Assembly (NCBI GenBank): GCA_031256725.1
Contig: JAIRQE010000026.1
Location: forward strand, 30,001-62,000
DNA from: Propionibacteriaceae bacterium
Lineage (GTDB): Bacteria; Actinomycetota; Actinomycetes; Propionibacteriales; Propionibacteriaceae
Direction of reading: 5' to 3'
Length of the DNA: 32,000 bases
Position 1 is the first letter of the stretch. Every line of letters begins with the position of its first letter. A program made the position numbers and the translations under genes. Below, piece by piece: positions 8,783-31,773 of the stretch. The notes beneath the pieces were generated by a model. It was not told the DNA's origin. It was given only the letters and a program-made list of their open reading frames with translations, and did not search any database.

Positions 8783-9964
8783 ATGAACGCTCATCCTCAT
8801 GCTGGTCATCCAGGAGGTCATCCGGGTGGAGGACACCCTGGAGGTCATCCGGGAGCTATTGGTTCTGTGAAGCCGGAGAACTGGGTTTATGGTCGCGCCC
8901 CGATGATCGTCTACTGGGAGTTGACGAATGCGTGTGCGCTGGCGTGTCGACATTGTCGTGCGACTGCTCAACCCGATCCTGGTCCCAATGAGTTGACGAC
9001 CGCCCAAGCGATTGCAGTCTTGGATCAGGTCTTGGAGTTCGGGGAACCCACACCACATGTGACGATGACCGGTGGGGACCCACTGAAGAGACCAGACCTT
9101 ATCGAACTATTGGATGCGGCTGCTGAGCGTGGACTGGGTGTGTCATTGGCTCCTGCGGTGACCCCATTGTTGACGAAGGAGAAGCTCACCGAGGTGAAGG
9201 CTCATGGTGTTCAAGCGATTTCTTTGTCACTTGATGGGATCAATGCTGAGTCCCATGATGGGCTTCGTGGAGTGCCTGGTACTTTCCAGGGAACCATGGA
9301 TGCCCTCGACATTGCTGCCGAGGTTGGTTTGGCCGTACAGGTCAACACATTGGTCTGCGAAAACAATGCCGATGAGATCCGTGACATCTATGAACTGTTG
9401 AAGACGAAGACCCTTATGAGGTGGTCGCTGTTCTTCTTGATCTCTGTGGGTCGTGGCGCTGAGTTGACTGAGATCAGCCCTGGTGCAGGGGAACGCCTGA
9501 TGATCGATCTGATGGCCTTTAACCGCGAGGCACCCTTCCAGGTTCGTACCACCGAAGCCATGAGCTACCGCCGTGTCGCAGCCCAGGCACTCGCCAAGCG
9601 CGGAATGACCCCTGAAGAGATTGAGGCCTCCAAGATCGCGATGTCTTTCGGTATCCGTGACGGTAATGGTGTGGTCTTTATTTCCCATGATGGCGACATT
9701 ACTCCGTCGGGTTTCCTGCCTGTACCTCTCGGAAATGTGAAGACTGACCGGTTGGCGAAGGTCTATCAGGAGCATCCCACGATGTTGGATCTGCGTGATC
9801 CGTTGAAGTTCAAGGGCCGTTGTGGTCGCTGTGACTTTCAATTGTGGTGTGGAGGATCACGAGCGAGAGCTTGGGCGTGGACCCAGGATCTTCTCGAAAC
9901 TGATCCGCTATGTCCCTATGTACCTTCCGCGGATGCCATTCCACAAGCACAGGTATCGCGTTGA
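8783..9964 (+). CDS. radical SAM/SPASM-domain enzyme with an N-terminal His-Pro-Gly-Gly repeat; AhbD-like candidate for the terminal heme step
   Basis: CxxxCxxC cluster motif (C51-ALA-C55-RH-C58). C-terminal Cys-rich SPASM-type segment (GRCGRCDFQLWCGG...DPLCPY). N-terminus is HPHAGHPGGHPGGGHPGGHPG. The gene is embedded between hemE and hemY. The rSAM call is secure. The function is inferred. Confidence 0.85.
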   Translation: MNAHPHAGHPGGHPGGGHPGGHPGAIGSVKPENWVYGRAPMIVYWELTNACALACRHCRATAQPDPGPNELTTAQAIAVLDQVLEFGEPTPHVTMTGGDPLKRPDLIELLDAAAERGLGVSLAPAVTPLLTKEKLTEVKAHGVQAISLSLDGINAESHDGLRGVPGTFQGTMDALDIAAEVGLAVQVNTLVCENNADEIRDIYELLKTKTLMRWSLFFLISVGRGAELTEISPGAGERLMIDLMAFNREAPFQVRTTEAMSYRRVAAQALAKRGMTPEEIEASKIAMSFGIRDGNGVVFISHDGDITPSGFLPVPLGNVKTDRLAKVYQEHPTMLDLRDPLKFKGRCGRCDFQLWCGGSRARAWAWTQDLLETDPLCPYVPSADAIPQAQVSR

Positions 9965-11319
9965 AACTGCTTGTCATTGGGGGAGGGCTCACAGGCCTAG
10001 CAGGTGCCTATGAGGCGGTTCGTCTAGGCGCTGAAGTGACCCTCATCGAAGGATCGTCCCGCCTTGGCGGCAAGGTGTGGACGGAGTACACAGACAACCT
10101 CGTCATCGAACATGGTCCCGATTCGGTGGTTTCCTATCGACCTGAGGCCTTGGGTCTTGCGCGTGAACTGGGGCTCGGCGACAAGATCGAAGAGGTGGCC
10201 TCCTCCCGAGTTGTGTACATGAGATCCGGCAACAAACTGCGTCCCCTTCCTGCGTCGATGGGAATCATCCTTCCTGCACGTCTGTGGCCTTTCGTGACCA
10301 CGGGGATACTCTCGATTCCTGACAAGCTGCGTGCCGGATTTGATCTCGTCTTGCCTCGAAAGTTAACTACGGGCGAGGATATCTCCATCGGGGAGTTCCT
10401 GAAATATCGCCTTGGTCCCGCGATGGTACGCAAGTTCGCTGACCCTCTTGTTGGGGGCATCTATGGGGCAAGTGTTGATGATTTGAGCCTGGATGCTGTA
10501 CTTCCGAGCCTTCGTCACAATGAAGAGAAACACAGGGCATTGCTCTTGGCCGCCCGAGCTGGACGTCCACGCGGACCCCAGAAGAAGGGTGCCAGCCCAT
10601 TTCGCTCCCTCCAAGGGGGAATGGGTACACTCATTGATGCTGTCGCTGGGGCCACGCGATCTTCGGGGGTCACGATCATCACGGGCGAGATGGTGGAGGC
10701 TTCCATTCTGGATTCGCACGAGTACGACGCTGTACTCCTGGCTGGGGGAGTTGGATCTTCGGCGAAGCTCCTCGCCGATCGGGTACCTGAGGCAGCTACT
10801 ATTTTGGGTCAGATTCCCATGAGCAGTTCCACCGTGGTGACCTTGGCCTATACCGAAGACCAGATTGGTACTGGAGCTGCCGCCCACGGATGGTTGGAGG
10901 CCCAAGCAGCCCCCGTGAGTGGGATCACGGTATCCACAGCCAAATGGGCTGAACGCGCTCCTGAGGGTCAGGTACTCCTGCGGGCCTTCGTACCTGCACG
11001 TCTGGGGGCCATCGCCAGTGCCCCTGATGACGAGTTGCTCACTGCGATCAAGACCCACCTAGCTCAGATTATGGGGGTACGAGGTGAGCCCTGGTTGACG
11101 AGGATCACCCGCTGGGCTGGTGTGATGCCAAGCTACACTGTCGGACACCTGACTCGGGTTGCCGCCATCGAGAAGGCCTTGGAATCTACCCCCTGGAGGA
11201 TCGCTGGTTCCGCCCTTCACGGTGTGGGTCTTCCTGATTGCATCGGTTCTGCGAAGAGAGCAGTAGGTGCATTGCTTGGGGTTGATTCTGTCGTTAGTTC
11301 GGGGGACTCTCGTGTATGA
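9961..11319 (+). CDS. hemY: FAD-dependent coproporphyrinogen/protoporphyrinogen oxidase (HemY/CgoX type)
   Basis: FAD-binding N-terminus LLVIGGGLTGLAGAYEA...EGSSRLGGK. I place the start at TTG 9961, overlapping the rSAM stop as GTTGA, rather than at ORF-track position 9910. Confidence 0.85.
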   Translation: MKLLVIGGGLTGLAGAYEAVRLGAEVTLIEGSSRLGGKVWTEYTDNLVIEHGPDSVVSYRPEALGLARELGLGDKIEEVASSRVVYMRSGNKLRPLPASMGIILPARLWPFVTTGILSIPDKLRAGFDLVLPRKLTTGEDISIGEFLKYRLGPAMVRKFADPLVGGIYGASVDDLSLDAVLPSLRHNEEKHRALLLAARAGRPRGPQKKGASPFRSLQGGMGTLIDAVAGATRSSGVTIITGEMVEASILDSHEYDAVLLAGGVGSSAKLLADRVPEAATILGQIPMSSSTVVTLAYTEDQIGTGAAAHGWLEAQAAPVSGITVSTAKWAERAPEGQVLLRAFVPARLGAIASAPDDELLTAIKTHLAQIMGVRGEPWLTRITRWAGVMPSYTVGHLTRVAAIEKALESTPWRIAGSALHGVGLPDCIGSAKRAVGALLGVDSVVSSGDSRV

Positions 11320-20988: not shown

Positions 20989-21014
20989 GTGTCAGGAGAT
21001 ACGTCCCCTGACAC
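20989..21014. repeat. 26-bp hairpin repeat, copy C (GTGTCAGGAGATACGTCCCCTGACAC), 26 nt after the upp stop; possible terminator
   Basis: Same element as at 4345-4370 (inverted) and 4432-4451. 8-bp stem with a 10-nt loop and no U-tract. Confidence 0.8.
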
Positions 21015-21202
21015 TCCTTGATTCTGTGATACGGAAACATGGCTAAACAAAGTCAGTACCCACCTCCTGGTGTAGGAAGGTGGGGAGTGGGTAGAATCGA
21101 TGGTAACGATTTGGTAACGGGCAGTATCCGTTGGAGACTGGGCCTATGCTGAATTGAACAGACCTGCAAAGATAGTAATGCTTGGCGTAGCAAGGAGGAA
21201 AG

Positions 21203-21874
21203 ATGGCCGCATGGGACCCGGACGACATGGCCGACGAGGTTCTTGACGATGATCTCGACTCTGAGGACGAGTTTGATGACGAGGATTCTGAGGACGCTGA
21301 TCCAGAAGACGAGGATGACGACCTGGATGAAGCTGACTTCGATGACGAAGACGATGAGGATGACGAACTCGAAGATGCCGACGATGACGAGATCGATTTC
21401 TGTATAGCTCTCTATCGCGAGGATGGAGTACCAACAGGCGTGGCCTTGGAGCCTGAGTTGGCCAATGATTTCGAGGGTCTCATTGATCATCTGCAGAGGA
21501 TTCCCGGGGATGCGGGGGCCTTGGGTTTGATCTCACTTGAGGGGGATGTACTCGTGGCTGTACGGGTACGCGGGGCCCGGCATGTGCAAGTCTTCGTCTC
21601 GGATGCGTACTTTGTTGACACCTGGCCGCTGGTTCGCGATGCGATCGACTTCCTGGGTCTTGATAACGGTGACGTGCCTGAGGAGGGTCTCGTTGGGGAT
21701 CTCGGAATGTTCGCTGATCAGGGTGTCTCCGAAATGGATCTTGAAGCCATGTTCATGGATGCTGATGAGATGACAAGCGAAGACGTAGCCGAGAAGGTTG
21801 CCGAGGGCATGAGGTTCGGTAAGGCCTTCCGCAAGGCCGTTGATGACTACTGGGATCTTGAGGATGAAGCCTGA
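21203..21874 (+). CDS. acidic protein of the actinobacterial 'tRNA adenosine deaminase-associated' type
   Basis: About 65-aa Asp/Glu-rich N-terminus, followed by a conserved-looking core (FCIALYREDG...LISLEGDVLVAVRVRG...VFVSDA). This matches my memory of that family. No tadA follows it here. Confidence 0.6.
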   Translation: MAAWDPDDMADEVLDDDLDSEDEFDDEDSEDADPEDEDDDLDEADFDDEDDEDDELEDADDDEIDFCIALYREDGVPTGVALEPELANDFEGLIDHLQRIPGDAGALGLISLEGDVLVAVRVRGARHVQVFVSDAYFVDTWPLVRDAIDFLGLDNGDVPEEGLVGDLGMFADQGVSEMDLEAMFMDADEMTSEDVAEKVAEGMRFGKAFRKAVDDYWDLEDEA

Positions 21875-21888
21875 GCCTGTACTGTACC

Positions 21889-22239
21889 GTGGGTACTGAG
21901 ATATCGGCTCGGTTTGCAGAACGCATACTGGTCATCTGTGGTCGTTGTGGACATCCTGGGGTTGCGGGAGGTGCAGACAAGCGTTTCGTGTGATGTACCA
22001 ATTGTGAGAGCCTGCCCTCAAAGAGACTGGCTGGACGACATCATGAAGAGACTGTTTACTGGGGGGTGGAGTTGCTATTAAAGGTACGTACGCGCCACGG
22101 GTATCTATGGGTCCTTAATGAGGAGCATCTGGCCCAAATGAAGGCTTTAGTGGGTGTCAAGGTACGAGTGGACACCCCAGGGGATTACCATTCGGGATGC
22201 TGCTGTTATTCGGCTCCCTGGTGGAAGGTACTTCCATGA
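21889..22239 (+). pseudogene. possible decayed gene: Cys4 zinc-ribbon ORF interrupted by an in-frame TGA (21991-21993)
   Basis: Translation: VGTEISARFAERILVICGRCGHPGVAGGADKRFV*CTNCESLPSKRLAG...LWVLNEEHLAQMKALVGVKVRVD. The stop falls between the two CxxC pairs. No family recognised. Confidence 0.3.
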
Positions 22240-22423
22240 TGGATCACCTCCGCAAAACACCGTGACGAGGTACTGAGGGGGGCTTGGGGAAACTTGAGGA
22301 GATGGTACATGGTCAGCCCTAGAACGAGGCGTGGCCAGCCAGTCCAAAAAATGTCGGACCTCCCTTGTAGGCTGATTATTCATAAACTACCGTTGTGAAC
22401 AGCGTAGATGGAGGTGGGGCTTT

Positions 22424-24835
22424 ATGGATATAAAGGACTGGATCTGGGAGCAGGTCGCTGCTGATCAGGAGTTATCTGAGAAGGCTCAATGGCTTATTGT
22501 TGCCGCAGTGGAAGGTGACGCGGAGTTTGCTGCGGTTGTTGGGGGTGAGACTCCGCAGAAACCAGTCTCGACCCAGGTAGTCGCTGATCCGAAGAGAGCG
22601 TTCCTCAAGACGATAGTAGTTGAGGGGTTTCGCGGGATTGGCCCCAAATCCAAACTGGAACTCACCCCAGCGCCAGGGTTAACAGTTGTTGCTGGTCGCA
22701 ATGGCTCAGGTAAGTCTAGTTTTGCGGAAGCGGTTGATATTGCCCTGCGAGGGCGCAGCGAACGTGGAAAAAAGCGTCCAACTCTAGGTGATGATCAGTG
22801 GAGGAACTTGCATCACGCCAAGCCCTCTATTGAGGTTCAAACGGTGTTAGAGGGTGCAGGGTTGACGACTCTGGGCGTGCAGTGGAGTGAGAATGCTGGT
22901 CTGGATGAGTGTCAGAGGTGGACCCAGGAGTTGTCCCAAAAGCGTGTTGCAGGAGCAGAGACTCTGGGCTGGAATCAAGCACTTGAACTGTATACGCCGA
23001 CCTTGTCTTATGACGAGTTGGGTGGAGTCTTTGATAGGAATCCCTCTCAGTTCCATGACGCATTGGAGGCTTTCCTAGGGCTGGCACAGGTGACGGAAGC
23101 AACCAAGAGATTGAACAACTACGTGAAGGCTGTGAGTGAGCCATCTACCAGATTGAGGGCTGCGACGTCGAGAGTCAAGGCAGCCTTGAGTGGTGTCGAT
23201 GACGAGCGGGCGAGTACGACTCTCACAGTCATCTCCTCTCGCGCTCCAGATATCGAGGTCGTACGTACGCTCTTGGCGGGAGGAAGTGGTAGTGCTGATC
23301 CTAGGGTGAGTGCTCTAGAAAGACTTGCCACCTATGTACTACCCGACTGGAGTCTTGTGGTGTCCGCCCTGGCTGAGGTACAAAGCGCGGAAAACAATCT
23401 CAAGGAAGCCTTAGTCAAGACTGGGGATATTGGAATGGATGCTCATGACCTCTTGATTGGCGCGTTGGCCTATCACCAGGATCACGGTGATGGTCTGTGT
23501 CCTGTGTGCGGCCAAGGCCAGTTAGGTCAGGAATGGGCACAGAAGGCCCAAGAGACCGTGGAAGCCAGCAAGGCTGTTCGCCAATCGGTATCCGAGGCGA
23601 GACAGAGGCGTACACAGGCTGATAGGGGCTGGGTCAACTGCCAACCTATGACTCCACGGCTAGAGGGTGTCCAGGATGTGCTGAATGTTGAGAGCTTGGC
23701 TTCAGCTGTACAAGCCTGGCAGGAGGTGGCTAAGCATCCATGTGAGGTAACAGTGGAGGACGCTGGTCGTGTGTACGAAATCTTCAGGGTCGAAGCAGTC
23801 GCTGTTGTGGGCAGGGCTCAAGAGGAGGCCCGATCTCGGCAAAACAAATGGGCAGAGGTTGTTCAGCATGTCGCTGAATGGTTGAGCGCTTATGAGGCTG
23901 CCGAGAATGGGCGGGATACCTTGGCTAGAGCAAAGGAAGCCCATGAATGGCTTAAAACCAATGGCGAGAAACTACGCAATAGTCGACTAGAGCCCTTGAC
24001 TGAAGAATCTCGAAGGATTTGGTCCAAACTGAAGCAGCAAAGCAATGTTGATCTAGGGGCAATCACCTTGGAGGGTTCAGCCAACCGCCGTCGCGTGGAT
24101 TTACGGGCACGGGTTGATGATTCTGACGAAACTGGAGTGGCGGTTATGAGTCAGGGTGAATTGCATGCTCTGGCGTTGTCATTGTTCATTCCTAGGGCGA
24201 ATAGTGATGCAAGCCCTTTCGGGTTCATTATCTTTGATGATCCCATTCAGGCGATGGATCCCAGCAAGATCGACGGGCTTATTGACGTACTTTCTGATTT
24301 AGCGCGTACCCGTCAGGTTGTGGTCTTCTCCCACGATGATCGACTCCCAGATGCACTACGCCGATCATCTGTCGAGGCGAGGCTCGTGGAAATCGTTCGG
24401 GGAAAGAACTCTGTTGTCAGTGTGAGTGATCTCAGTAATCCGTCTCAAAGATACATCGATGAGGCGCGAGCCGTCTTGCTGGAGTCACACTTGACAACGC
24501 AGGACATGATGCGGGTGATCCCTGGGTTATGTCGGCATGCTTTGGAATCTCAATGCAAGGACATGTTTTATGTACGCTTGCTTGGTTCGGGTTCCTCACG
24601 TGATGAGGTCGAGAAGATGTGGAATGATGCCCACAAGACCAGTACGCGGCTCATGCTGGCAGTCGATAAGGACCAGGATGGCCTCAATCGTTGGCGCAGT
24701 ACTAACACCCTAGTCAATCGTGCCTTGGGGATATGTACCTCGGGTTTCCACAAAGGTTTAGAAAAGACCACCCCTGAAGATGCGATCAGGACTGTGGATA
24801 GGCTTATCGACCACTTGAAGGCCATGAGATTATGA
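22424..24835 (+). CDS. SMC/Rad50/RloC-like ABC ATPase with coiled-coil insert, CPVCG zinc hook and an extra ~130-aa C-terminal helical domain
   Basis: Walker A GRNGSGKS (aa 91-98), signature MSQGE (575-579), Walker B FIIFDD (601-606), H-loop FSHDD. About 470 helix-prone residues lie between the head halves, with C359-P-V-C362-G at the midpoint. The C-terminal domain spans aa 674-803 and carries R704-x3-E708 ... H776. GGAGGTG Shine-Dalgarno sits 7 nt upstream. Confidence 0.85.
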   Translation: MDIKDWIWEQVAADQELSEKAQWLIVAAVEGDAEFAAVVGGETPQKPVSTQVVADPKRAFLKTIVVEGFRGIGPKSKLELTPAPGLTVVAGRNGSGKSSFAEAVDIALRGRSERGKKRPTLGDDQWRNLHHAKPSIEVQTVLEGAGLTTLGVQWSENAGLDECQRWTQELSQKRVAGAETLGWNQALELYTPTLSYDELGGVFDRNPSQFHDALEAFLGLAQVTEATKRLNNYVKAVSEPSTRLRAATSRVKAALSGVDDERASTTLTVISSRAPDIEVVRTLLAGGSGSADPRVSALERLATYVLPDWSLVVSALAEVQSAENNLKEALVKTGDIGMDAHDLLIGALAYHQDHGDGLCPVCGQGQLGQEWAQKAQETVEASKAVRQSVSEARQRRTQADRGWVNCQPMTPRLEGVQDVLNVESLASAVQAWQEVAKHPCEVTVEDAGRVYEIFRVEAVAVVGRAQEEARSRQNKWAEVVQHVAEWLSAYEAAENGRDTLARAKEAHEWLKTNGEKLRNSRLEPLTEESRRIWSKLKQQSNVDLGAITLEGSANRRRVDLRARVDDSDETGVAVMSQGELHALALSLFIPRANSDASPFGFIIFDDPIQAMDPSKIDGLIDVLSDLARTRQVVVFSHDDRLPDALRRSSVEARLVEIVRGKNSVVSVSDLSNPSQRYIDEARAVLLESHLTTQDMMRVIPGLCRHALESQCKDMFYVRLLGSGSSRDEVEKMWNDAHKTSTRLMLAVDKDQDGLNRWRSTNTLVNRALGICTSGFHKGLEKTTPEDAIRTVDRLIDHLKAMRL

Positions 24836-25176
24836 GCAGCGAACATCTGATTGAACAGGCTCAGAAGATCCTTGATGGTTCATCCAGTCTTCCTGGGGTT
24901 AAGATTCGCTTGTCCCTGTGGTATGCACGGGCCGCTTTAGAGGAGTACACAGTTGCTCGACTGGATGGCATTGTGAGTTGTGACCCCGCGGACATGACCA
25001 TGGCTAGTCGTCTCATCTTCCTCAAAGAACTCAATCCCGATGTGGGTCAGCCAGCAAGTTATGCATGGTGGGCATTGAGTCGGGCCTGCCACTACCACGC
25101 ATTTGAGTTAACTCCCACCCAAGAGGAAGCTGAGCATTTGGTGGGGATCGTTGCGAGGGTTTGCGGAACACGGTGA
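24832..25176 (+). CDS. 114-aa helical protein, free-standing paralogue of the C-terminal domain of the upstream ATPase
   Basis: ATGA start/stop overlap with the ATPase gene. Residues 3-37 align without gaps to ATPase residues 674-708, with 10/35 identical including R-x-A-L-E. A second shared block lies near the C-terminus (A-L..C..H...L..T-P..E). Confidence 0.65.
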   Translation: MSSEHLIEQAQKILDGSSSLPGVKIRLSLWYARAALEEYTVARLDGIVSCDPADMTMASRLIFLKELNPDVGQPASYAWWALSRACHYHAFELTPTQEEAEHLVGIVARVCGTR

Positions 25177-25391: not shown

Positions 25392-25466
<75 letters not shown>

Positions 25467-25786: not shown

Positions 25787-26002
25787 GTGAGCACCAATAA
25801 TCAGAATCTGGCCCCTGAATTGGAGCCCATGCTTAGTATGGCTGACCTTTCGAAAGCTCTTGGAATTCCCGTAGCCACCATTTACGATTGGCGGACCCGA
25901 GGGAAAGGTCCAAGGGCTTATCGCTTTGGGAAGCATTTGAAGTTCGCAGTTTCCGATGTGAAGGCTTGGATGCTTTCCCGCCGTGAAGGTGGTGAGAAAT
26001 GA
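25787..26002 (+). CDS. xis: excisionase-family / AlpA-like helix-turn-helix DNA-binding protein
   Basis: LSMADLSKALGIPVATIYDWRTRGKGPRAYRFGKHLKFAVSDVKAWM is the typical HTH_17/Xis pattern. The stop overlaps the integrase start (ATGA). The start could instead be ATG 25829. Confidence 0.75.
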   Translation: MSTNNQNLAPELEPMLSMADLSKALGIPVATIYDWRTRGKGPRAYRFGKHLKFAVSDVKAWMLSRREGGEK

Positions 26003-27180
26003 GCCGCCCTAGACTCATCATTGGTACTTTTGGGGAGATCTCATTCCTCCCGAGTTCATCAGGCAAGGTTCAGGCTCGTACTCGTTATAGAGACTGGGAT
26101 GGGCAAACTCGCCAAGTCCAAGCATCAGGAAAAACCAAGCGACAAGCGGAACAAGCCCTGAAAGCCAAACTGACGGATCGGATGCTGATCTCCCCGGTGA
26201 TGACTGATCTGACACCTGACTCGTCGTTCCTGGAGTTGGTTGAGTACTGGAAAGCCAACATGGAATTGGAAGGCCGCCTCGCAGAACAAACCCGTGACCG
26301 TTACGCCTACCATATGCGTCAGCTAATACTTCCAGCATTCGAGCACTTGACTCTTCGGGAGATTGGTGTGGCTAGCTGTGACCTTTTCATTAAGGGAATG
26401 GCTAAGCTCTCCTACAACAAGGCCCGTCAGGCAAAGGTTGTCTTGAGGTTGGTCTTCAGTCTGGCTGTACGACACGAGATTCTGCCTAGGAATCCCATGG
26501 ATGGAATCGCCAGGCTTCACAAACCACCGCACACACCTGACGCGCTAACACCTCAGGAAGTCAATGCCATCCGAATCGCTATTCGCTTCTGGGAAACCGG
26601 GATTGTGTCGAGTGGGCCGAAGCCTGATGGTCAACTCTCCGCGATTGTCGAGGTGATGCTGGGAACCTCAGCCAGAATTGGTGAGGCTCTGGTTGTCCGT
26701 CGAAGAGATGTTGATCTGGACAGTCCCACACCATCGATCTCGATTCAGGGGACCATCATCATGCCCAGAGGCCAAGCGCCAAGCCGCCAGGACCACCCAA
26801 AGACGGCCAAGTCTCGTCGTACTGTCGCAATCCCAGATTTCACTACCAAAGCTATGCTACAGAGGCTTGAGGCTATGAGCGACAAGTCCCCAGATGCGCT
26901 GGTGTTCTGCTCTCGAAACGGAACGCCACTCACGACGAACAATGTCCGCCGCCAGCTCAGGCATGTGCTGAAGATGGCCGGAATTGAAGGAGTAACTCCG
27001 CACAAGTTCCGCCGTACTGTTGCCACGGCTGTGTCTGAAACGGCCAACGTCGAACTAGCTGCGGAGTTGCTGGGCCATGTGGATTCGAGAATCACTGTCC
27101 AGCACTACATTAGAAGAAGCGAAATGGTGAGCTCGGATACGGCTTCGATCCTCCAACGGGCATTCAAGCCTGACCTATGA
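25999..27180 (+). CDS. int: tyrosine-type site-specific integrase
   Basis: N-terminal SAM-like core-binding domain. Catalytic residues are in context: ARIGEAL (Arg), HKFRRT (His-x-x-Arg), LLGH (His), VQHYI (Tyr). Confidence 0.93.
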   Translation: MSRPRLIIGTFGEISFLPSSSGKVQARTRYRDWDGQTRQVQASGKTKRQAEQALKAKLTDRMLISPVMTDLTPDSSFLELVEYWKANMELEGRLAEQTRDRYAYHMRQLILPAFEHLTLREIGVASCDLFIKGMAKLSYNKARQAKVVLRLVFSLAVRHEILPRNPMDGIARLHKPPHTPDALTPQEVNAIRIAIRFWETGIVSSGPKPDGQLSAIVEVMLGTSARIGEALVVRRRDVDLDSPTPSISIQGTIIMPRGQAPSRQDHPKTAKSRRTVAIPDFTTKAMLQRLEAMSDKSPDALVFCSRNGTPLTTNNVRRQLRHVLKMAGIEGVTPHKFRRTVATAVSETANVELAAELLGHVDSRITVQHYIRRSEMVSSDTASILQRAFKPDL

Positions 27181-28697: not shown

Positions 28698-28940
28698 ATG
28701 TGGAGGGTTCGCAAGTTCATGCATACGCTTGATCGGCTAGGTTTGGTGGTACGTGAGGAGCGTGCCACTCTTAGGCTGACCGTGGATTCTCTCGCCCAGA
28801 AATCGGGTGTTTCACCTCAGTTTGTTAAACAAATCGAAAGCAATAAAGCGCCATGTGATATATCTGGAGTTCTTCGTGTTCTAGATGCTCTTGGGGTGAA
28901 GGCTCTTGTTCTTCCACCTGGTCTCATCAAGGTTGTCTGA
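28698..28940 (+). CDS. XRE-family helix-turn-helix protein (HipB-like antitoxin)
   Basis: LRLTVDSLAQKSGVSPQFVKQIESNK HTH pattern. AGGAGG lies 8 nt upstream of ATG 28698. The stop overlaps the start of the hipA fragment (TGATG). Confidence 0.8.
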   Translation: MWRVRKFMHTLDRLGLVVREERATLRLTVDSLAQKSGVSPQFVKQIESNKAPCDISGVLRVLDALGVKALVLPPGLIKVV

Positions 28941-29160
28941 TGCGCTCGCTTGATGTGTGGCGGGAAGCCGAGTTCGTTGGGCGGTTCACTCTTGGCGACA
29001 CAGGTTCTGTGAGTTTTGAGTACGACAGTCATGATGGTTTGCCTATCTCCTTGTCTCTTCCCCGGCATGGGCAATGGTCCCGTCATGCTCCGCATCGCTT
29101 TCTTGAAAATCTTCTACCAGACCGTCCGCAAGCTCGACTGCAAATGGCTGCCCAAAACCA
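28940..29160 (+). pseudogene. hipA: hipA 5' fragment (N-terminal coupling domain only, ~74 codons)
   Basis: MRSLDVWREAEFVGRFTL...FEYD...PISLSLP...FLENLLPDRPQAR matches the E. coli HipA N-terminus pattern (V.W...VG.LT...F.Y...PLSLSLP...F.NLLPD.P..R). The kinase domain is absent. Confidence 0.75.
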
Positions 29161-29399
29161 GCGTGACGATCCGGGAGGGACTGCCCGTAACCACGCTCGA
29201 GCAGACTATCGCCGACCTAGTGGAGAGCAACTTCGACCTATCGCTGATTGCCGACATGATGGCCGAAGCACCCAGCCTCGACCTACAGCAACTCGGAGAA
29301 CTGCTCTCGCGCCTGGCCGCCCGGAACGGTCAAGCTGCTGGCGATGGTCGTGCGCTACTGGAACGCATTCGTCACAGAAATGTCGTAGGTGGCAACTAG
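29154..29399 (+). pseudogene. 3' fragment of an AbiEi-like (type IV TA antitoxin) gene
   Basis: In a different frame from the hipA fragment: KTSVTIREGLPVTTLEQTIADLVESNFDLSLIADMMAEA... resembles the AbiEi C-terminal region. No N-terminal wHTH part is present. The base composition shift begins here. Confidence 0.5.
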
Positions 29400-29431
29400 C
29401 GTGGACCCCGACGAGTCAGAAGGAGTTGGCT

Positions 29432-29542
29432 ATGACTGATCGAGCACCGTACCCGAACGCCCGCGCCATCAAGACTGGACTCCGTGCCATGACCTCCAGG
29501 TCGCACACGCTCAGAGTCGGACTACGACCTTGTGAGGAATGA
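29432..29542 (+). pseudogene. possible 5' stub of an AbiEii-type nucleotidyltransferase toxin gene
   Basis: MTDRAPYPNARAIKTGLRAMTS... resembles AbiEii N-termini and sits where abiEii would follow abiEi. Only about 36 codons remain before a stop. Confidence 0.3.
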
Positions 29543-29549
29543 TGACTCA

Positions 29550-29996
29550 ATGAACGGTTCGAGTAACCATGGACCGGTCCGGAAGTTCAAACGCTTCGGT
29601 TGGGTCTTCTACATTGGTGATGACAGCACCCTCGCGCCGGACAAGACAGGCAAATGGATGTACTTTTTCAATAATCTGTCGTTCGTACGGGATGCCTGTG
29701 AACGGGCTGTAGCGAATGGTGTGGTTGTCGAGGCAAAACACAGTGATGCCTCTCGAGGCGTCGCTTGCTTCTATCTGAACTCCGACGACATAGCAGCTCA
29801 CCGAAAGACTATCACTTTTTTTCTGGAGAACAACCTGATTCGACGAACGAAGTCCGGTCGGTTGTACGACATTTCATTCAAGCTGGATAGTCAGACGGAG
29901 GCCGGCGAGTATGCGGGTGGCTTTCACTCGGACACTCGACTGTCCACATTCCTCGACTTGAACACTGCGGAATGGATCAATCTACAGCCCGAGTGA
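29550..29996 (+). CDS. DUF1917/Bles03-like small protein (family labelled 'putative phosphothreonine lyase domain' in some annotations)
   Basis: Pattern GKWMYFF ... VVVEAKHS ... VACFYLNSDD ... ISFKLDSQTEAGEYAGG matches my memory of that family (GKW-hydrophobic; hCVYt.D; YK.D..T..G.Y). GAGGAA lies 10 nt upstream of ATG 29550. The 3' end overlaps the convergent helicase gene by 20 nt. Confidence 0.55.
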   Translation: MNGSSNHGPVRKFKRFGWVFYIGDDSTLAPDKTGKWMYFFNNLSFVRDACERAVANGVVVEAKHSDASRGVACFYLNSDDIAAHRKTITFFLENNLIRRTKSGRLYDISFKLDSQTEAGEYAGGFHSDTRLSTFLDLNTAEWINLQPE

Positions 29997-31773
29997 ACCC
30001 TATCTGCCTGTATGCGGCCCAACGTCGTCTGTACTGCGAGTTCAGGATGGACACGTTCGCATCAACGTAGTCGTGAACTACGACCTCGGTCTTGCCCTCA
30101 TAGCGGCGTAGAGCGCGTCCGACTGCCTGCGTCACCAAACCAGGATAGGAGATTGGGCCGACAAGGAACACCGTGTCGATGGCGGGCGCGTCAAAGCCCT
30201 CGCCGCCGAACGGTACGGTCGTCATGACCAGCAGAGGATCGCCTGGTCCAGCCTCCGTGATCTTGCCTCGGATTGCCGCCAACACCTTGCTGCCGGTGCC
30301 TCCACGCATGATCATCGCCTCAGCGTCAGGCAGCATGTCCGCCAGGGTTGTGAGATGGTTTCGGCGGCGGGACACCACCAGACACTTGCGGCCTTCGCTG
30401 AGCGCGGCCTTGATGTCGCCAGCGATTTGGCGGTTACGATCCTCGTCCTCAGCAACCATGCCGCCCAATCGGGTGAAGGCGCCTGGTTCCGAAGGGGTGA
30501 AGTCGGTCGGCGTACGGTAGCTCGTCTCGTGAACCCGGAGGATGCGGCGTGGCCCGTCGTACGGGGTGACGAGGTTGGCCTCTCCAGGCAGAATGTCACG
30601 CATGGCGTGACGAGTAGGGCCGAGTTGCCAGTGCATGACTTGCTCTGTGCCATCGCGGCGCTCTGGGGTGGCCGTCAAGCCAAGCCACCATGCGGCGCCT
30701 ATATACGAGACCACGTTCTCCCACGATCCGGCCGCGACATGGTGACACTCGTCAACGATCACCTGGCCGTACCCACTGGTCAACTCACGGATCTCGTCGG
30801 ATGTCTTCCTGGACAGCGTCTGCAACATCATGATGTCGATCTGTCCACGTAGCTTTGTTCGCCCACCGCCGAGTTGTCCAGTCTTGACGCCCAGCAGCGT
30901 CTGTATTTGATCTCGCCATTGCGATGTGAGAGACCTCGTGTGCAACAAGACGAGCGTGCTGATGCCACGTTCGGCGATGATCGCGCAAGCCATGACCGTT
31001 TTGCCAGAACCAGTGGGTGCATGCAAGACGCCATCTTCGTGGGCCAGTATCGCATCCACGGCGACAGTTTGACGTTCGTCCAACTCACCCAAGAATGACG
31101 CGTCGAGTTCGTTGCCGTGGTTGCGCTCGTCGTCGCAGACCAGCTCGCTGCCCGCCTGAGAGATTAAGCTTGTCGCCTGATCGCGTATGCCGCGAGGCAG
31201 GATCAGGTCACCGCTGATGGCGACATCGAAGCCTTGGATGAAACGCGGGAGTGCCCACGTAGACCGTCGAGCCCGTTGCGCTTCATAGAATGCCGGGTTG
31301 TGGATTGTCGCCGAGTGCCGCAGCGCTGCGGATAGTTCCGGGGTCAAGTCCTCGTTACGGATTATCAATCCCGTACCCAGCACAGCCCGGATCTGCGCCG
31401 GTGGCTTCGGATGGATGACTGTTGCTGGCGACTTTTCCAGACACTTAACGTCTGGACCGACGACAATCTTGTCCTTGCGGGCAACCGCCGTCACCTGCCT
31501 GGGCGTCATCCGATCAAGCTTGCTCGACAAGTATTCCCATTGATCGTCGTATGGTTCCCACGTCACCAAATCGATAAACAGCGTGGTGCCGCGTTCCTTC
31601 TTGCGTTGTCCGTTCAGAGGCGCCGCGATCAGGTTTCCGAGCTGACCTGACGTGACTGGCACCGTGTCCTGGCTTGGGAACAGCCGGTCGTAGCTGGCCA
31701 GCGGCTGTACCCATCGCCCTGGCTTCTGCTGCCGGTACTGGGGCCTCAAAGAATGTCCAGACGTGAGCGCCAC
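29977..31773 (-). CDS. SF2 (DEAD/DEAH, ResIII-type) helicase part of a primase-helicase fusion; reading frame broken at ~31702
   Basis: Motif I HAPTGSGKT, II IVDECHH, III GLTATPERRDG, VI QAVGRALRR. Upstream of the helicase, this ORF carries the C-terminal half of an AEP fold (LASYDRLFPSQD...GNLIAAPLNG...TTLFID). Its first ~25 codons look out of frame. Confidence 0.9.
   Translation of the reverse strand: MALTSGHSLRPQYRQQKPGRWVQPLASYDRLFPSQDTVPVTSGQLGNLIAAPLNGQRKKERGTTLFIDLVTWEPYDDQWEYLSSKLDRMTPRQVTAVARKDKIVVGPDVKCLEKSPATVIHPKPPAQIRAVLGTGLIIRNEDLTPELSAALRHSATIHNPAFYEAQRARRSTWALPRFIQGFDVAISGDLILPRGIRDQATSLISQAGSELVCDDERNHGNELDASFLGELDERQTVAVDAILAHEDGVLHAPTGSGKTVMACAIIAERGISTLVLLHTRSLTSQWRDQIQTLLGVKTGQLGGGRTKLRGQIDIMMLQTLSRKTSDEIRELTSGYGQVIVDECHHVAAGSWENVVSYIGAAWWLGLTATPERRDGTEQVMHWQLGPTRHAMRDILPGEANLVTPYDGPRRILRVHETSYRTPTDFTPSEPGAFTRLGGMVAEDEDRNRQIAGDIKAALSEGRKCLVVSRRRNHLTTLADMLPDAEAMIMRGGTGSKVLAAIRGKITEAGPGDPLLVMTTVPFGGEGFDAPAIDTVFLVGPISYPGLVTQAVGRALRRYEGKTEVVVHDYVDANVSILNSQYRRRWAAYRQIGFTRAVD

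Follow-up and report, generated by a model that had tools for sequence, protein, structure and literature searches.

A candidate two-gene module of a zinc-hook ABC ATPase and a small HEPN-like protein in a Propionibacteriaceae genome

The gene pair and its ATPase

A stretch of 32,000 nucleotides from a Propionibacteriaceae metagenome-assembled genome (contig JAIRQE010000026.1, positions 30,001 to 62,000), called the window here, was analysed for a pair of adjoining genes on its forward strand. The first gene encodes a protein of 803 aa which, judged by its sequence motifs, is an ATP-binding cassette (ABC) ATPase of the Rad50/SbcC type with a split head and a predicted zinc hook, and the second encodes a small protein of 114 aa with a predicted HEPN fold. 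The two genes are an obligate two-gene unit, and it is possible, at a rough probability of 0.45, that they make up a defence module of the abortive-infection type which would work like the RloC nuclease. Both open reading frames (ORFs) lie where a first-pass annotation of this DNA had placed them, and the TGA of the ATPase gene shares 4 nt with the ATG of the small gene as ATGA, also as claimed there. The features of the pair are given below.

22410..22414, + strand: Shine-Dalgarno-like GGAGG, 10 nt 5′ of the ATPase ATG (direct sequence reading)
22424..24835, + strand: ATPase gene, 803 aa (ORF)
22694..22717, + strand: Walker A GRNGSGKS, aa 91-98, with G91, N93, G94, G96, K97 and S98 invariant
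23498..23509, + strand: predicted zinc-hook motif C359-P-V-C362 (CPVCG, aa 359-363), with C359 and C362 invariant
24146..24160, + strand: ABC signature MSQGE, aa 575-579, with S576, Q577, G578 and E579 invariant
24224..24241, + strand: Walker B/D-loop FIIFDD, aa 601-606, then PIQAMDP (conservation in 30 relatives)
24332..24334, + strand: H-loop (switch) histidine H637 in FSHDD, invariant
24440..24832, + strand: predicted C-terminal all-helical HEPN-like domain, aa 673-803 (AlphaFold 2, Foldseek, profile link)
24533-24535, 24545-24547 and 24749-24751, + strand: codons of the C-terminal triad R704, E708 and H776
24832..25176, + strand: small-protein gene, 114 aa (ORF)
24928-24930, 24940-24942, 25090-25092 and 25096-25098, + strand: codons of R33, E37, H87 and H89 of the small protein
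25078..25119, + strand: signature loop S-R-A-C-H-Y-H-A-F-E-L-T-P-T of the small protein, aa 83-96, between the fourth and last helices

The pairing of the two genes was followed in other genomes, as the first-pass annotation had suggested. A profile search found a homologue of the small gene directly downstream of the ATPase in 84/84 other loci with an intact ATPase ORF. The first pass of this search gave 82/84, and the remaining two were one frameshifted small gene and one copy cut by a contig end. The irregular copies of the small gene are those of L035 (frameshifted), L053 (start mis-called) and L052 (cut by the contig end). The same 4-nt overlap is present in 63 of the 79 pairs, and in the reverse test, which started from relatives of the small protein, the ATPase was directly upstream wherever the contig permits.

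In locus L035 (Mycobacterium sp. MYCO198283, positions 9742-10093) the small HEPN gene is divided between two frames while the upstream ATPase is intact; the split is a frameshift or a sequencing error, and this is the sole disrupted copy among the 84 loci. A third gene of 320-520 aa, having a 4-nt overlap with the stop of the small gene, was observed in L005, L006, L007, L016, L041 and L023. A conserved third component was considered and rejected, as these overlapping genes are mutually non-homologous.

Conservation in the ATPase was measured on an alignment of 30 relatives having 37-48% identity. The motifs GRNGSGKS, CPVCG, MSQGE, FIIFDD and FSHDD were all found at the residues quoted in the first-pass annotation, with their catalytic positions invariant. 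In the Walker B/D-loop the invariant residues are F601, D605, D606, P607, Q609, A610, M611, D612 and P613, and the Q-loop region is also invariant. Thus all parts looked for in an ABC head of the RloC/PrrC type (Walker A, signature, Walker B/D-loop and switch histidine) are present without variation. The two residues between the hook cysteines, P360 and V361, are at least 90% conserved, and the hook is the midpoint of a helical insert of about 340 residues (about aa 205-540), in which a crude measure gave raised hydrophobic 3.5-residue periodicity at aa 201-400 and 451-500. The architecture proposed earlier in the style of RloC and Rad50 was recovered in this way: the ABC head is split by a long helical insert, and the CPVC of the hook does not vary.

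The Pfam matches of the ATPase are SMC_N (3.6e-14, aa 60-641), AAA_23 and AAA_21, with AAA_13 below threshold, and its best PADLOC match is LmuB (9.6e-21; LmuB models at most 72.6 bits), followed by mad3 and HEC-01A. The NCBIfam models of Rad50, SbcC, RecF and RecN match only the head motifs and stay far under their cut-offs. There are more than 2000 full-length relatives of about 800-830 aa, the nearest of which has only 48% identity to the window protein and lies in a different neighbourhood. In RefSeq the two genes are labelled ‘AAA family ATPase’ and ‘hypothetical protein’. A helical extension of aa 1-58 (window 22424-22597) precedes the ABC head; it is conserved, with the consensus ...ADxDxxLSExAKLxVLAALEG..., an invariant L17 and with D14 and A28 at least 90% conserved, and it has no family match.

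The free and fused helical domains

The AlphaFold 2 model of the small protein has five helices and a pLDDT (predicted local distance difference test) value of 94. Its Foldseek matches in the PDB are almost all HEPN structures (probability 0.84-1.0, template modelling (TM) score 0.47-0.67), namely 2q00, 2hsb, 4nqf, 7ae6 and HepT 7bxo/6m6w, and further Csm6 8jbb, sacsin 3o10 and SO_3166 5yep; the E-values of these matches are weak (0.07-0.6). On the modelled structure, the small protein is confidently predicted to be a HEPN fold. Pfam gave a weak DUF4145 match in 5/79 members of the small family and HEPN in 1/79, and a few members carry the UniRef names ‘SAV-6107-like HEPN’ or ‘DUF86’. Scans of the small protein itself against Pfam, NCBIfam and PADLOC returned no significant family, and a sequence-profile search of the PDB with its alignment returned nothing meaningful.

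Conservation in the small family was taken from 128 sequences. R33, E37, H87, E92 and P95 are invariant (128/128), H89 is present in 127/128 and R84 in 100/128 (78%), and R84-x4-H89 has a spacing within that of Rx4-6H. The signature loop has the family consensus L-S-R-A-C-H-h-H-x-Y-E-L-a-P-T, and we take this loop to be the position of the HEPN Rx4-6H motif, from the usual place of that motif. The family comprises 1360 clusters at 50% identity, nearly all of them stand-alone proteins of 110-165 aa. One relative of the small HEPN protein (P0393, 243 aa) has a C-terminal extension of about 110 aa containing ‘SLCHFTRRESMAGIIHTGAIL’, which may resemble the start of DarT-type ADP-ribosyltransferases; the extension may be a read-through into the neighbouring gene.

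The additional C-terminal helical domain of the ATPase, which the first-pass annotation had described, was modelled with a pLDDT of 93.8 as eight helices after the last beta-hairpin of the head. R704, E708, E730, W733 and H776 are invariant in it (30 relatives). In the model, R704 and E708 stand on the long second helix and H776 just before the loop preceding the last helix, and the layout appears to be that of the small protein plus inserted extra helices. The sole credible Foldseek match in the PDB is the HEPN structure 4nqf (probability 0.94/0.87, TM 0.41-0.46); the remaining PDB matches have TM <0.3 and are noise, as were all matches of the model to viral structures (BFVD). No Pfam, NCBIfam, PADLOC or PDB sequence-profile match was obtained for this domain, and PADLOC v2 at E<=10 gave 0 families for aa 672-803 and three small proteins, the RloC/PrrC models of that release being unchecked. 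One PDB match and a weak profile link to the small protein suggest, with moderate strength, that the fused domain is HEPN as well. Of the two nuclease-like domains proposed earlier, the small one was matched to HEPN structures broadly and the fused one to 4nqf only.

The Arg-x3-Glu...His pattern proposed in the first-pass annotation is invariant in both proteins. Its spacing in the small protein (R33-x3-E37-x49-H87) is within the 36-52 residues of RloC, and its spacing in the ATPase (R704-x3-E708-x67-H776) is outside that range because extra helices are inserted. In the fused domain the arrangement is R766-x9-H776, with no arginine 4-6 residues ahead of H776.

That one domain is encoded twice, once fused and once free, had been claimed from a gapless alignment of ATPase 674-708 with residues 3-37 of the small protein (10/35 identical). 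The alignment is real, but when the small protein was shuffled 300 times, 15 shuffles (5%) reached 10/35 somewhere, so it is marginal alone. An hhalign comparison of the two family alignments gave P = 3e-4 for a local match of the first two helices, and in extended form P = 8e-5 to 2e-4, colinear across 111-112 columns; R704/E708 are superposed on R33/E37 and H776 on H87, and the R-x3-E...H residues thus follow one another alike in both. The native alignment scored 30.7, the reversed profile 10.7 and 40 block shuffles no more than 26.5; shuffles retaining the L-x-R-x-A-L-E helix scored 19-26. In cross-searches with hidden Markov models (HMMs), the small-protein HMM gave a median of 10 bits on 182 C-terminal domains and the reciprocal search a median of 6.4 bits, against 0.2 for reversed decoys in both directions. 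These comparisons give moderate support to the view that the small protein and the fused domain are distant paralogues.

A Rosetta-stone search for fusions among the best 150 relatives of the small protein returned a single chimera, the database protein P0389 (507 aa), in which ATPase and small HEPN are naturally joined. Residues 1-391 of it match the ATPase profile as far as about two-thirds of the C-terminal domain, and residues 371-485 match nearly the whole small-HEPN profile in frame. This single, suggestive case is a real deletion-fusion or an assembly artefact; if a real deletion-fusion, it would argue that both proteins act together.

Distribution and genomic setting

In a scan of one genome per species, relatives were found in at least 559 species, mostly Actinomycetota with some Acidobacteriota, Gemmatimonadota and others, and the distribution is patchy. 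Only 3 plasmid records carry the family and no phage record does. A survey was made of the 104 genes directly adjoining the pair in the scanned loci. The flanking genes vary by locus and many are of defence type, with the Pfam families ResIII, Mrr_cat, MTES_1575 restriction endonuclease, GmrSD_N, PLDc_2, AbiEii, SLFN-like and other superfamily 1 helicases. PADLOC calls among them are Hhe, type IV restriction endonucleases, DISARM DrmA/DrmD and BrxH, and single loci additionally hold type III restriction-modification (R-M) genes, McrBC, transposases and toxin-antitoxin pairs. AbiEii-type nucleotidyltransferases make up 2/104 of the flanking genes, and no metallophosphoesterase of the Mre11/SbcD type was present among the top 25 Pfam families. 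On the neighbourhood question raised in the first-pass annotation, the homologues are patchy and show no conserved synteny. The varied and defence-rich flanks, together with a nearest relative only 48% identical and placed elsewhere, argue for an accessory, horizontally moving immune module and not for housekeeping repair.

In the window itself, the pair is adjoined by core genes (glmU, prs, a HAD hydrolase, upp and an acidic protein of the Rv3753c family), and its GC content is the same as that of the flanks. The spacer, called decayed in the first-pass annotation, is 550 bp long and has no convincing ORF or Rfam match, and scans of the locus with Rfam and for promoters and terminators gave nothing beyond the tRNA listed below. 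The GC skew is +0.18 to +0.23 at window positions 21000-24000 and about 0 to 0.1 elsewhere in the window; this skewed region consists of the acidic-protein gene, the non-coding spacer of 550 bp and the first half of the ATPase gene. The highly acidic protein (223 aa, window 21203-21874) carries PF27101 (Rv3753c) in the precomputed annotation and was unmatched by PF27101 in the Pfam copy scanned, probably because the library versions differ. The features on the 3′ side of the pair are as follows.

25392-25466: tRNA-Pro(CGG), tRNA identification confirmed
25787-26002: HTH_17 excisionase-like gene, 3′ of tRNA-Pro
25999-27180: tyrosine integrase, 3′ of tRNA-Pro
28940-29542: HipA N-terminal (Couple_hipA) fragment, then an overlapping ORF of 154 aa without family
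29977-31773, - strand: ResIII helicase with an AEP-TOTE conflict-system domain

The first-pass annotation had placed the pair next to a tRNA-Pro integration hotspot. The tRNA, the excisionase and the integrase are real, but the pair is on the 5′ side of the tRNA and therefore outside the integrase-bearing island, so that the hotspot has little bearing on it. A direct-repeat search found no second tRNA-Pro 3′ end (att site, attR) inside the window.

Interpretation and comparison with known systems

The mechanism proposed for the RloC-like module is as follows. Two long antiparallel helical arms would end in the CPVC hook, which presumably dimerises the ATPase, and the heads may sense DNA ends, DNA damage or foreign DNA, by analogy with the DNA-dependent ATPase of RloC and with LmuB of Lamassu. 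The second gene would be translated in step with the first through the ATGA overlap and yield a minimal HEPN protein. Because two HEPN domains together make the RNA-cutting site of HEPN ribonucleases (RNases), the fused and free copies are proposed as the working pair. Movements of head and hook driven by ATP and DNA would decide whether the HEPN pair is catalytically competent; a competent pair would cleave tRNA or other RNA independently of metal and so halt translation in the infected cell. The free copy is preferred as completing the site, and not as masking it, because all its catalytic-type residues are kept. We infer in this scheme the heterodimerisation of the fused and free copies, the RNase activity of the HEPN pair, the DNA trigger of the ATPase (from the analogies named) and the defence phenotype of the module. 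That the pair represents a widespread and so far undescribed class of SMC-type (structural maintenance of chromosomes) immune modules, with at least 559 species and about 1,400 small-protein clusters, and with an asymmetric RNase site of a fused HEPN and its free paralogue acting as a two-polypeptide analogue of Cas13 HEPN1/HEPN2 gated by DNA and not by a guide RNA, is doubtful at this stage.

Several results weigh against the RloC-like module. The profile link between the two domains is weak (probability 39-60%), and much of its score is due to the single L-x-R-x-A-L-E helix. The HEPN call of the fused domain hinges on one PDB entry at TM of about 0.45, and that domain departs from expectation both in its Glu-to-His spacing of 67 and in the lack of a canonical Rx4-6H. 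The match of the ATPase to AAA_13 stays below threshold and ends at the H-loop. In the window the surroundings are core genes (upp, prs, glmU) without a GC anomaly, and the near-absence of the family from plasmids together with its absence from phages makes it less mobile than many defence systems.

The free protein may instead be a built-in, antitoxin-like inhibitor which silences the fused domain by sitting on its dimer face, to be released upon DNA sensing so that two fused HEPNs, joined through engagement of the heads, form the RNase. We regard this as unlikely, although the translational coupling and the 100% co-occurrence are what a toxin and its guardian would show, PrrC depends on an external silencer where RloC is described with an internal switch (PMC3458546), and divergence is faster in the small family (mean column identity 23-39%) than in the ATPase (53%). 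A pure plug would need no invariant R33, E37, H87 and E92 or near-invariant H89, and it is the small family which retains the more canonical Rx4H; moreover, its gene is downstream of the putative toxin gene, by which the product would be made after or with the toxin and not before it. SMC complexes as a rule have small accessory subunits that bridge or cap their heads, and on this general ground the small protein could be a structural subunit analogous to a kleisin or LmuC, its conserved residues binding nucleic acid or the head without catalysis, with the fused domain or an unlinked protein as the effector. LmuB as the best PADLOC match of the ATPase fits such a role, as does the report that some HEPN domains are non-catalytic binders (PMC3710099). 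But the predicted fold is HEPN and not winged-helix, no PADLOC match to LmuC was obtained even at E up to 10, the small protein is akin to the fused domain and not to head-binding modules, and binding alone would hardly account for R/E/H residues in just the pattern of a proven nuclease triad; a structural role is thus quite improbable.

Least probable of all is a non-immune function, in which the protein would be a lineage-specific SbcC-like ATPase of DNA repair or chromosome maintenance with regulatory helical domains. RefSeq does attach ‘double-strand break repair’ Gene Ontology terms and uses names like ‘Nuclease SbcCD subunit C’, and the pair is chromosomal, rare on plasmids, absent from phages and next to housekeeping genes in the window. 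Against this, the NCBIfam models of Rad50, SbcC and RecN reach only 12-36 bits with cut-offs of 418-1087, a phosphoesterase of the Mre11/SbcD type is missing from the top 25 neighbour families, and the family is patchy, without conserved synteny and flanked by many restriction and abortive-infection genes.

If the RloC-like module is real, a common and unannotated defence system would be added to the immune repertoire of Actinomycetota, which is still little mapped; the carriers include Mycobacterium, Rhodococcus, Streptomyces and Micromonospora. It would provide a tractable case of how Rad50/SMC-like heads and zinc hooks relay a DNA signal to an effector and of how HEPN RNases stay silent. 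Simple genetics can tell masking of the active site from its completion, since the paralogue that serves as partner is a protein of its own and is co-translated. The R-x3-E...H HEPN site of the PrrC/RloC type would also be extended to a stand-alone protein of 115-130 aa. The family is also large, lacks annotation and lends itself to experiment.

The first-pass annotation had not recognised the arrangement in RloC/PrrC, Lamassu, Wadjet, Septu, Gabija or PARIS; no named system was matched in PADLOC v2, NCBIfam 20 or Pfam, and no description of a zinc-hook ABC-HEPN fusion with a free HEPN paralogue was found in these libraries or in the literature searched. The top PADLOC matches HEC-01, PDC-S06 and MADS mad3 were rejected, since they match the ATPase motifs only; in HEC-01 the partner of the ATPase is a TOPRIM protein (bioRxiv 10.1101/2024.01.29.577857). 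Six actinobacterial systems described by Mordret et al. (bioRxiv 10.1101/2025.01.08.631966) were also rejected, as HEPN and an SMC protein are unmentioned there. The ATPase falls outside Rad50/SbcCD, with 12-36 bits on the NCBIfam Rad50 and SbcC models against cut-offs of 453-1087, and the pair falls outside the HEPN-MNT toxin-antitoxin systems, as its constant neighbour is the ATPase and not a minimal nucleotidyltransferase.

The window ATPase is of the ‘CxxC SMC’ class, to which Rad50/SbcC belong; LmuB, RloC and DndD were recovered as LmuB homologues in the same study (PMC12663957). Lamassu resembles the window family in that an SMC-like ATPase of the CxxC class, the presumed sensor of DNA, is linked to a nuclease effector. 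In the window family, however, the predicted effector is fused to the ATPase and is HEPN-like, not Cap4, Mrr or similar; neither the small protein nor the C-terminal domain matched LmuA or LmuC (PADLOC, E<=10), and with LmuB models matched only by its ATPase, without LmuA/LmuC and without a conserved third gene, the pair is not placed in Lamassu.

[quoted passage not shown] The APECO1_4465 and ERFG_01251 families (Anantharaman et al. 2013, PMC3710099) likewise have an ABC ATPase, a C-terminal HEPN and defence contexts, but by their description they are single proteins, some with HEPN/TOPRIM-NTD1, which carry Rx4-6H, have no operonic free HEPN paralogue and are given without mention of a zinc hook. 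The anticodon nuclease PrrC resembles the proposed module in that its C-terminal nuclease domain with R-x3-E...H is regulated by an ABC ATPase and its activity is also controlled by a partner protein; unlike the window ATPase, PrrC has no coiled coil or zinc hook, and the partner which silences it is the type I R-M enzyme EcoprrI and not a HEPN paralogue, whereas the loci of the window family have no constant R-M linkage.

RloC, a bacterial anticodon nuclease of the antiviral suicide type, is the closest in layout. It has ABC motifs, a coiled-coil insert with a CxxC zinc hook and a C-proximal Arg-X3-Glu-X36-52-His (Davidov & Kaufmann 2008, PMC2610378). The triad is essential (R320/E324/H356 in PrrC, R692/E696/H737 in the RloC of G. 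kaustophilus), and its mutation abolishes the nuclease activity and toxicity of RloC (PMC2610378). The nuclease is switched by the hook and the DNA-dependent ATPase (Klaiman et al. 2012, PMC3458546), and this internal switch, for which no external silencer is required, is credited for lateral transfer in the same report. The window ATPase has the same order of ABC head, coiled-coil CxxC-hook insert and C-terminal helical domain with Arg-x3-Glu...His, and both families occur sporadically, at times beside R-M genes. The window family differs in always having a second gene for a free HEPN paralogue (no partner gene is mentioned for RloC in PMC2610378 or PMC3458546), in the Glu-to-His spacing of its ATPase and in ranging mainly over Actinomycetota, Acidobacteriota and Gemmatimonadota. 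The Pfam model of PrrC/RloC, AAA_13 (PF13166), has a cut-off of 36 bits, and the window protein and five relatives score 17-32. Matches that take in the C-lobe of the head stop at the H-loop, at profile position 569-570 of 713. In view of the AAA_13 scores, the spacing and the constant extra gene, the ATPase is RloC-like on paper and is not filed as a member of RloC; this separation from RloC/PrrC is drawn from published features and AAA_13.

Two HEPN domains form one RNase site in Cas13 (HEPN1/HEPN2) and in the dimers of Csm6/Csx1 and HepT. The window family is predicted to pair two HEPN domains likewise, as diverged copies in the manner of Cas13, but here the copies are on two polypeptides, one of which is tethered to a Rad50-like ATPase. 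It is most likely that the zinc-hook ATPase with its paired HEPN domains is an unnamed variant of the RloC-type nucleases, standing outside the RloC family proper.

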